Virus record (IMG/VR): IMGVR_UViG_2713896905_000002 | Coordinates: 1 to 5,271 of that record | Source: a virus | Lineage: Duplodnaviria; Heunggongvirae; Uroviricota; Caudoviricetes | Reading direction: 5' to 3' (one strand) | Length of the DNA: 5,271 nt | Program-made: the position numbers | Shown here: positions 987 to 3,900 of the stretch, one piece after another | How positions within the stretch are numbered: position 1 is the first letter of the stretch | How the letters are laid out: each line of letters starts with the position of its first letter

Positions 987-3900
987 ACTGGACCGCCACC
1001 GGGGACTCGAACCTCGCACACTCAACTTAAAGGGTTGACGCTCTTTCCTGATGAACTGGTGGCGGTTGGTGGCCCTTGCTGGATTTGAACCAGCGACCTG
1101 GCGATTATGAGTCGCTCGCTCTCACCACTGAGCTAAAGGGCCGGGCGCAGGATAATAACGTTACGAAATCAATGTTGCAAGCATTCAAGAATCACCTGGT
1201 TAAAAATTACCCTTACTTCCTCCACCAGCGCATTCACCATGTCTATCCGAGATAAGTGGCACAAAAAAACCCGCTTGTGGGCGGGTTTTGTTTGCTTTTG
1301 CCATCACGTACAAAATCGGCAAAATATCAGATTTGCATAAAATATATGCCTTTTAATCTACTTTTGCAATATTTTGCTGTGAAAATGCCGTCTTTTGTTC
1401 TGAGCGCGTTCTCGTCGTAAACAATAAAGCTTCACTATCCAGCTGATGAAAAATGTGTTTCATTGCAATCCAGTGACCAGTATATGTTTTGGACCAGTTT
1501 TTAGTTGTCACTCCCACCAGTGATGCCAGCTCTTGGTATTCATAGGTCTCACGCCCTGCCAGTTCGCTCTTCACATCCTGTGCTGCCAGCCAGATTAACG
1601 TCTTCAGGCGATCCAGTGTTTTACCTGCAATTTTTCTGGTACCCAACAGAGCCTTAAACTCGCTCCATGCCCACTGCGTTATGGCAACCTGATGCTCCCA
1701 GCGAATATTTTCACTGTAACTCCACAGCAACCATGCTTTCTGATGTTCATCGAGAGACAAAATCGCACGCCGCCATGAAGAGGTTGAAAACTCGACCGAA
1801 CTGACCAAGGCGACAGATGAACCTTTTGCGTACGACTGTTTACCGGAAATCGGCGGATTATCCAGCGTAATCATCTTGCCAGTTACCACATCCAGAATAC
1901 GCGGTTTCTTTCGTTTGTATGTACCAGTATCAAATTGTGCATGCTCCTGCCAGACTTCAAGCTGACCTTTCATTGCTCCGTTCAGGTCAGCAGTAGCTGC
2001 CATAAGTTGCTCACGAACATATTGTAAATATTGGGTATTCATGCGGCAGCTCCTTTCAGTGTTTTGGCGTAATTCTTCAGTATTTGGTAATCGGTAAAAA
2101 CAGAACCGGGGAAACGATATAAGCGCAGGCACACCCAGCGACGGCGAAGGAGTTCTGATATATAAGACTCAGACATCATTCCCCGGTTCTCCAATATCTG
2201 TTTCACTCATCATCCATAACTATCTGTAACTGCCCCCTTTGTAACAGCTCTTATATTGCTATATGGAATAGCCATAACTAATTCATTTAAAATCAATAAA
2301 TAACATTATAAAAACACAAAACACCATGCAAACACACTTTACAAAAGCACTACCACATTAAAAGTAGGTAATAAAAATTATAATAAAAATAAATTCATTG
2401 TTTATCACACATAATTATAAAACACCATATTGATTACGCCCCTTGTATTATAAATACACGTATGTAAAATACGCGCCCTATTCAAAAAAAAGGAAGACAA
2501 TAACATATGAAAAAACGTGTCATCGCTGGGGGCTTTATTGCTCTGTCATTTACCGCATATTCAGCTATCGCGGACAGCCTTGCATTATCATTAGCAAATG
2601 ATGATGCAGGGAAGTTGCAACCAATACTTAATGATATTTATGGCAATAAACATGAAAACAGAGATGATTACTCACAAGGCTTATTTCTGGGATATAGCCA
2701 CGATATATCAGACTCGAGTCAGTTATCTCTCCATATTGCGCAAGATATTTACTCTCCGTCAGGCAGTAATAAAAGACACAACACAGCTGTAACTGGAGAC
2801 AGAGCTTTTAGTGCATACACTCACACAGGTATTGAATGGAACGCCCTTGCTAATGAGTGGATTCGTTATCGATTAGGTACTGACATAGGTGTTGTTGGTC
2901 CAGACGCAGGCGGTCAGAAAGTACAAAATAAAGCTCATGAGATTATTGGTGCAGAAAAATATCATGCATGGGATGATCAAATAGAGAATCGTTACGGTTA
3001 TACTGTAAAAGGGATGCTATCCGTGACACCAAGCATAGATATTTTAGGTACTAATATTGGATTATACCCAGAAATTTCTGCTGTTAGTGGGAACTTATTT
3101 CAATATGTAGCATATGGCGCAACCATTGCCATCGGTAATGACAGAACCTTCAATTCGGATAATGGCTTTGGTCTGCTGGCTCCACGTGGTTTAATGCATA
3201 TGTCCGATACAAGCGGATTCAAATACAAGATTTTTGCAGGTATGGAAAGACGAGATGTCAATCGCAACTATACTCTCGAAGGAAAAACAATACAGACGAA
3301 ACAAACGACAGTATCGCTAAACAAAACTGTTGATGAATATCAAGTTGGCGCAACAATTGGGTATGCACCTGTAGCCTTCACACTAGCATTTAATAAAGTA
3401 ACATCAGAATTCAAGACAGGGGATGACTATTCATTTATAAATGGAGCAATCACCTTCTTTTTTTAACTGAATTGAATTCAATCAAAATAACATAAGCCCA
3501 ACAAAAACATAAAGTGCGAAATGAATGCTAGCTCCATTTATTTCGCACTATAAAAGGTTAAAAGTTGCAATAAAATAATAAAATGACTCAGTTACGAAAA
3601 CCAATAAACTGTGGCCAGTAGTGAGTCGCTCATCATCGGGCTTTTTGGCGAATGAAATTTAACTACGCTTTCGAGTCTCATGCGCCTTCTCCTTGTACCT
3701 GAATCAATGTGAGGTTTCCGCAGAACACTGCGCCAGTATCGATATACATCTGGTTGGCAAATTTGAGTGGTTTCACTGCTGGCGTATGACCAAAGATGAA
3801 CGTGTCCGCGCCTTTGATTTCTTTCACGATCCCGTCTTGTGAGTTGCTGATTCGTTCGCGATTCCAGATTACCTGCTGATTATCAACTGGCTTTCCAAAC

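Follow-up and report, generated by a model that had tools for sequence, protein, structure and literature searches.

Small genes of the ylcG family stand directly before a Q-type antiterminator gene in Escherichia coli K-12, phage 82 and phage 434, the closest described counterparts of the locus considered here. In the cryptic prophage DLP12 of K-12, YlcG (b4509, 46 residues) is encoded by the last small gene before a Q-type antiterminator gene, between rusA and quuD; it follows rusA with an ATGA overlap, and quuD encodes a Q of the PF06530 family. Phage 82 carries orf45 in the order rus-orf45-Q (X92588), where orf45 overlaps both the stop of rus and the start of Q by ATGA. In phage 434, a YlcG-like protein of 40 residues (CPT_434_66) is encoded in the order ninG, ninI, a remnant of lambda-type Q, lpxR, ylcG and a Q gene of the phage 82 type (Q82-type). 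Here we analyse a 5,271-nucleotide (nt) stretch of Caudoviricetes DNA (IMG/VR record IMGVR_UViG_2713896905_000002, positions 1 to 5,271; hereafter the window), in which a 46-codon open reading frame (ORF) on the minus strand ends on the start codon of a Q gene. This ORF is almost certainly an intact ylcG, an already known and routinely annotated lambdoid phage gene. The sequence evidence suggests, with a probability that we put at roughly 0.6, that ylcG is a real small-protein gene, the last early gene before Q, and that its translation is coupled to that of Q.

The window protein has the same length as K-12 YlcG, is 72% identical to it over all 46 residues and matches the same family models; unlike in DLP12, however, the gene follows a divergent lpxR and its stop overlaps a Q gene of the PF06323 family. 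Identity to orf45 of phage 82 is ~80%, with the same KGAAA tail and an identical ATGA overlap with Q, whereas the upstream overlap of phage 82 has no equivalent in the window. The phage 434 protein is 73% identical, shares the N-terminal half MMSESYISELL and lies in the same gene context as in the window, but it is truncated by a TAG at codon 41, does not overlap Q and carries substitutions at R19 and G25.

Family membership was clear from several sources. The NCBIfam model NF033498 (YlcG family), whose curated cut-off is 30, scored 63 bits (E=1.6e-17), and the PHROGs match was phrog_2705 (E=1e-17). An identical protein is recorded as "YlcG family protein [Escherichia albertii]" and carries PF26818 (Phage_YlcG); since our local Pfam scan returned no match for the 46-residue form, a 55-residue form or phage 82 orf45, even at E<=10, the PF26818 assignment rests on precomputed hits. 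In complete E. coli genomes, the name that the Prokaryotic Genome Annotation Pipeline (PGAP) gives to the homologous ORF is likewise 'YlcG family protein', and the region was matched in 2904 of 5426. The preliminary description of the window had presented the ORF as unannotated, a framing that does not hold given that public records (Pfam, NCBIfam, PHROGs, PGAP) already carry it as ylcG. The window gene also has the length, core and position of the family, with 46 residues in a family of about 45-50, eight of the nine nearly invariant positions and a stop that overlaps the start of a PF06323 Q gene. Among published work, PMC12844172 regards rusA and ylcG as a single operon under activation by HusR and cites Hemm et al. 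2008 for the stationary-phase induction of ylcG (K-12 copy). Our literature search returned no functional study of YlcG, nor one of its translational coupling to Q. The features of ylcG and of its junction with Q are as follows.

2039-2179, minus strand: ylcG, 46 codons plus TGA, MMSESYISELLRRRWVCLRLYRFPGSVFTDYQILKNYAKTLKGAAA; NF033498, phrog_2705 and, through the identical protein, PF26818
2189-2192, minus strand: Shine-Dalgarno-like GGAG of ylcG, 9 nt before the first ATG
2181-2184, minus strand: second purine run, GGGG, near the ylcG start
2179-2190, minus strand: 5' arm, in the mRNA, of the inverted repeat at the ylcG start, AGAACCGGGGAA, covering GGGG and the A of the first AUG
2102-2113, minus strand: 3' arm of the same repeat, UUCCCCGGUUCU, equal to ylcG codons 23-26 (F P G S)
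2039-2042, minus strand: ATGA overlap of the ylcG stop and the Q start
2050-2055, minus strand: Q Shine-Dalgarno element AAGGAG, within ylcG codons 42-44
2044-2051, minus strand: predicted 5' arm of the Q-start stem, AGCUGCCG
1995-2002, minus strand: predicted 3' arm of the Q-start stem, UGGCAGCU, in Q codons 14-16
1353-2042, minus strand: Q antiterminator gene, phage 82 type, 229 codons, PF06323 at 308.9 bits

The start and the end of the frame read as they had been described: the minus-strand ATGATG lies at 2179-2174 with GGAG (2192-2189) 9 nt upstream, and the 46-codon frame ends on TGA (2041-2039), so that ATGA (2042-2039) is common to the stop and to the Q ATG (2042-2040). Mechanically, the frame stays open to a GTG at 2206, which would give 55 residues. 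This extension exists because the window allele has lost 4 nt (AATG): in the region 2180-2183, one AATG unit of GGGGAATGAATGATG is missing compared with phage 434, phage 82 and all other alleles, a loss that removes the in-frame TGA before the ylcG start and sets the GGAG spacing to 9 nt. As this TGA directly precedes ATGATG in all 88 other loci first collected, ATGATG is the start of the family and the GTG was rejected. A GGGG(A/G)A element ahead of the start is kept in all Escherichia alleles. The minus-strand sequence further upstream (2192-2215, ATGATGAGTGAAACAGATATTGGAGAAC) resembles that of the ylcG start (2150-2179, ATGATGTCTGAGTCTTATATATCAGAAC) with ~68% identity by eye; this likeness may go back to a partial duplication long ago or be coincidental.

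Could the ORF be open by chance, as the preliminary description allowed? Such ORFs are common, since ATG-initiated ORFs of at least 46 residues number 9 in the window against a mean of 15 in dinucleotide shuffles, and the length of the ylcG ORF alone is unremarkable. Homology nevertheless excludes a chance frame, to which we give practically no credence: scores against the curated family models far exceed the cut-offs, and >180 loci, together with distant homologues, agree in position and length. Species-representative genomes supplied only 4 loci, and the loci were instead gathered from IMG/VR and by exact-protein look-ups.

Conservation of the protein extends well beyond the close relatives. 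A profile search of 1.84 billion proteins returned 54 cluster representatives (E<=1e-3), and in the alignment, whose members are 34-83% identical to the window protein, W15, L18, R19, G25, D30, Y31, R32, I33 and N36 are at least 90% conserved. The family motif RW..LR..R..GSVL.DYRIL.N is kept in relatives down to 34% identity. An AlphaFold model built on a 24-sequence alignment places two helices at residues 4-21 and 27-45, with a mean predicted local distance difference test (pLDDT) score of 80; YlcG is thus predicted to be a small basic protein of 46 residues with two helices joined at the conserved P-G-S turn. The conservation of length, motif and position at this divergence argues for a translated gene with a constrained product, and the retention of the peptide motif points to a separate function for the YlcG protein. 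The ylcG frame was open in all 88 loci first collected. The concern, raised in the preliminary description, that related phages might carry stops or frameshifts in this frame applies to a minority only, namely the alleles with the 434-type TAG at codon 41 and one frameshifted locus. The TAG occurs in about 36 of ~125 Q82-type loci, and the frameshift, in locus L137, is caused by one extra G in a GGGGG run. In another locus, L164, the 5' half of ylcG is replaced by unrelated sequence.

We looked up seven distant ylcG arrangements. In all seven, ylcG overlaps the stop of an upstream gene whose identity varies (RusA, NinG, RecA_dep_nuc or unknown), and in six there is also an overlap, of 4, 7 or 17 nt, with a full-length gene downstream. 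This downstream gene encodes a PF06323 Q, an unrelated PF06530/DUF1133 Q or a 201-residue protein without family assignment; the seventh contig (L102) stops 75 nt into an overlapping downstream gene. An identical 4-nt ATGA overlap is found in phage 82, L089, L096, L098, L099 and L102, and GGAG-type elements stand in distant loci at the same place as the AAGGAG of the window Q gene. In the DLP12-type loci L003, L007 and L184, the ylcG stop overlaps by ATGA an 8-codon mini-ORF (MKSEITIN and stop), which sits ~85 nt before the PF06530-type Q gene.

Translational coupling with a masked downstream start is established for many phage and operon gene pairs. The ylcG-Q pair resembles these in its ATGA stop/start overlap at 2042-2039, in the downstream Shine-Dalgarno element lying inside the upstream coding sequence and in a predicted stem over the start; it differs from typical coupled pairs in that Q has a strong Shine-Dalgarno element of its own and in that two lineages have lost the overlap. 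In the proposed mechanism, translation of ylcG would start at ATGATG (2179), and a ribosome ending ylcG would stop on the TGA that overlaps the Q ATG. While terminating, it would open the stem over the Q Shine-Dalgarno element and AUG, and Q translation would be raised or timed. We put the odds at about even that ylcG-Q coupling contributes to Q expression.

The predicted fold allows the Q AUG region to pair with Q codons 9-11. In the Q-start stem, the same alignment columns pair as GCUGCC/GGCAGC in the window, GCCACG/CGUGGC in L098, GCUGC/GUGGC in phage 82 (with two G-U pairs) and GCAGCA/UCUUGC in L089 (with one mismatch), whereas most of the pairing is lost in the 434 type, where ylcG falls short of Q. 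Across 11 distinct sequences, further pair types numbered 10 against 7.4 (5 of 500 shuffles) and the covariation score was 0.160 against 0.104 (2 of 500 shuffles), in a small sample and with a structure derived from the window sequence, toward which the counts are biased. This covariation lends modest support to the Q-start stem and is suggestive only.

A second candidate stem lies at the start of ylcG itself. The 12-bp inverted repeat noted earlier, AGAACCGGGGAA/TTCCCCGGTTCT at 2102-2113 and 2179-2190, is indeed complementary at 12 of 12 positions, with 65 nt between the arms. The start codon had been placed inside its right arm, which is true only of the first base (2179) of the first ATG, the remainder lying outside; the predicted RNA stem, unlike the DNA arm, reaches across both AUGs. 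Perfect 12-bp inverted repeats within 100 nt arose in 28 of 1000 shuffled windows, which makes this repeat moderately unusual by chance. The stem forms part of the minimum-energy fold, with a local z of -2.24 and 2 of 200 shuffles folding as well, while a 241-nt context showed no excess folding stability. Every Escherichia allele can pair 9-12 of the 12 stem positions, even when the final codons of rusA supply the 5' arm, and the rusA-linked alleles carry a homologous 5' arm, GAAC(U/A/C)GGGGAA. In phage 82, this arm lies in rus codons and pairs with one mismatch and one G-U pair. Among 25 distinct alleles, 94.5% of cells were paired, one pair being GC in 10, AU in 7, GU in 3 and unpaired in 4. 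The 434-type allele, which keeps the AATG missing in the window, breaks two pairs without compensation and is left with a weaker stem, of 10 of 12 pairs.

Within the Escherichia lineage, it is plausible from the predicted folds that the repeat acts as an mRNA stem masking the ribosome-binding site (RBS) of ylcG by pairing it with ylcG codons 23-26. In the usual rusA-ylcG-Q order, which is the ancestral one, ribosomes finishing rusA would open this stem at the ylcG start. In the window, the opposite-strand lpxR replaces the upstream partner, and the stem would tend to hold ylcG translation down. That either of the two stems forms in vivo and is functional is possible, though we hold this part of the model only tentatively.

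Instead of working as a translational stem, the repeat could act on DNA, as a protein site or as a recombination boundary between modules, or as a terminator. In favour of this, few of the shuffled windows above contained a perfect repeat of such length, a GUUUUU directly follows the 3' arm, and the 5' arm lies at a module boundary. Yet we find this alternative very unlikely: the 65-nt loop is far from that of an intrinsic terminator, arms 65 bp apart are atypical of a dimeric DNA-binding site, the motif is not repeated elsewhere in the window, and the conserved F-P-G-S codons constrain the 3' arm, so that part of the conservation of the repeat is explained by coding. A scan of 2039-2260 returned no terminator-like site, on which ground the repeat was rejected as a terminator, and no Rfam match was found in that interval.

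Several results weigh against a coupled small-protein gene. When close Escherichia alleles are compared, the codons show weak purifying selection, without a clean signal: variable sites are distributed 12/13/14 over the codon positions, the pooled ratio of nonsynonymous to synonymous polymorphism (pN/pS) is 0.51, and the window allele compared with most others gives ~0.8-1.1 (0.34 with locus L009). Protein-level constraint is therefore argued from the distant homologues. Codon 32 of the window allele (2084-2086) specifies Gln (CAA) where >90% of the family has Arg, changing DYRIL to DYQIL, and Foldseek searches of PDB and BFVD, together with a profile search of PDB sequences, returned only insignificant matches to helical hairpins. 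At the junction, ylcG ends 85 nt ahead of quuD in the DLP12 type, the TAG of the 434 type stops it 14 nt before Q, and Q owns its strong AAGGAG element; these three observations speak against an essential role of coupling. As for the stems, shuffled sequences fold as stably as the Q-start hairpin (z = -0.54), and the shuffle controls of the ylcG stem were marginal (40 of 500 for cells paired, 17 of 500 for the covariation score); linkage over 80 nt could lie behind the apparent compensation there. No equivalent of the start-region stem was found in the distant homologues.

The near-neutral pN/pS among close alleles would also fit an ORF that is only a translated leader, bringing ribosomes to the Q start and encoding a peptide without function. 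The wide retention of ATGA overlaps agrees with such a role, as does the C-terminal tail (KGAAA, TGAGV, AGATQ), which varies with the downstream gene and holds its Shine-Dalgarno element. We nevertheless regard a pure leader peptide, which was one of the options in the preliminary description, as unlikely, because relatives with 34-50% identity still have the motif, as do copies that precede unrelated Q families of different nucleotide sequence, and because the DLP12 type retains an intact 46-codon ylcG though it does not abut Q. The interval 2039-2260 also holds no regulatory codon run and no alternative terminator/antiterminator. A leader peptide of the attenuation type was rejected on the absence there of a terminator-like site and of an Rfam leader match, and on the conservation of the peptide as a family. 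Of the three options originally offered (a small coupled protein, a leader peptide or chance), the first fits best, with the correction that the ORF is no new gene but ylcG, orf45 of phage 82.

The history of this allele bears on a further alternative. Directly after ninI, the minus strand carries at 3595-3681 an N-terminal remnant of lambda-type Q, whose ATG shares ATGA with the stop of ninI; phage 434 has an annotation for this remnant too, and PGAP marks it as a pseudogene. From its presence we conclude that a block of lpxR, ylcG and Q82-type Q replaced a lambda-type Q. The similarity between lpxR- and rusA-context sequences begins ~20 nt before the ylcG ATG, at GAAC(N)GGGGAATGA, which makes the 5' arm of the stem, by descent, a part of the ylcG unit. 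It is this boundary at which the 5' arm was placed above.

Having lost its upstream partner at the lpxR insertion, ylcG could be a decaying passenger in the lpxR-linked lineage, poorly translated and becoming a pseudogene. The sister 434-type allele, in the same lpxR context, has the TAG at codon 41 and the changes at R19 and G25. The window allele itself carries R32Q, which may reflect relaxed constraint in this lineage, gives a pN/pS of ~1 against relatives, has the 4-nt deletion just before its start and bears a perfect 12-bp stem over its RBS with no upstream translation to open it. Against decay, the frame is intact, an identical protein is found on 14 contigs from independent samples, eight of the nine nearly invariant residues are retained, the GGAG is well spaced from the start, at 9 nt, and ylcG still overlaps Q by ATGA. 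On balance, we consider decay improbable and prefer an intact gene that is probably translated and coupled to Q.

In the wider map, the minus strand of the window carries the last part of an early-right operon of lambdoid type, and the neighbours of ylcG other than Q are as follows.

At the window end, which cuts it, minus strand: ninE
Early-right operon, minus strand: ninF
4340-4951, minus strand: ninG
3678-4343, minus strand: ninI, phosphatase
2507-3466, plus strand: lpxR, divergent from ylcG
833-1142, minus strand: four tandem tRNA genes, in transcription order Met-CAT, Lys-TTT, Thr-TGT and Gly-TCC
At the window end beyond the tRNA genes: a holin gene, then the start of a lysozyme gene

The absence of ninH from the window, already pointed out, fits this map, in which the ninG stop and the ninI start overlap at 4340-4343. 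Lambda NinH was also considered, and rejected, as an identity for the 46-codon ORF: only the YlcG model matched in the NCBIfam scan and none in the Pfam scan, and the place of NinH, between ninG and ninI, is not that of the ORF, which follows ninI. In reverse orientation, the window equals the complete contig BBVV01000036.1 of assembly GCA_001514905.1. The window Q protein is 86% identical to that of phage 82. An AT-rich spacer (2200-2506) separates ylcG from the divergent lpxR and contains two minus-strand promoter-like sites, 2404-2377 and 2332-2305, each with 10 of 12 matches; these could in principle allow ylcG-Q expression independent of the early operon, consensus matches in AT-rich DNA being weak evidence. 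Just downstream of Q, the minus strand has a strong terminator-like hairpin at 1266-1289, and the tRNA cluster lies downstream of Q and this terminator. Sub-threshold Rfam matches to the isrK, isrJ and leader families fall at 1260-1395 on the minus strand, a region that looks like that of the short late-promoter transcript (pR'-tR'). Between the tRNA cluster and the holin gene lies a second perfect inverted repeat, of 14 bp (701-714/760-773, TTATGAATGATCGC/GCGATCATTCATAA), with arms 45 nt apart.

A bolder reading can be formulated, in which YlcG would be a dedicated partner of the late switch. The two nested mRNA stems would then form a translational relay governing both the timing and the amount of Q, with ribosomes of the resolvase gene opening the ylcG start and ribosomes finishing ylcG opening the Q start, and the target of the arginine-rich, two-helix protein itself would be Q, RNA polymerase or the late transcript. 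We consider this doubtful; if true, it would account for ylcG travelling with at least two unrelated Q families.

As a gene call, the ORF brings nothing new: Pfam, NCBIfam and PHROGs all include ylcG, and thousands of genomes have it annotated. The wider value of the ORF is limited to showing that a widespread gene without an assigned function occupies a key regulatory junction, immediately before Q; lysis is under the control of Q, as is the release of toxin in Shiga-toxin phages. The steady adjacency of ylcG to Q, which holds for unrelated Q families, and the pair of candidate stems provide a hypothesis that is cheap to test, namely that ylcG may take part in the timing of late-gene expression.

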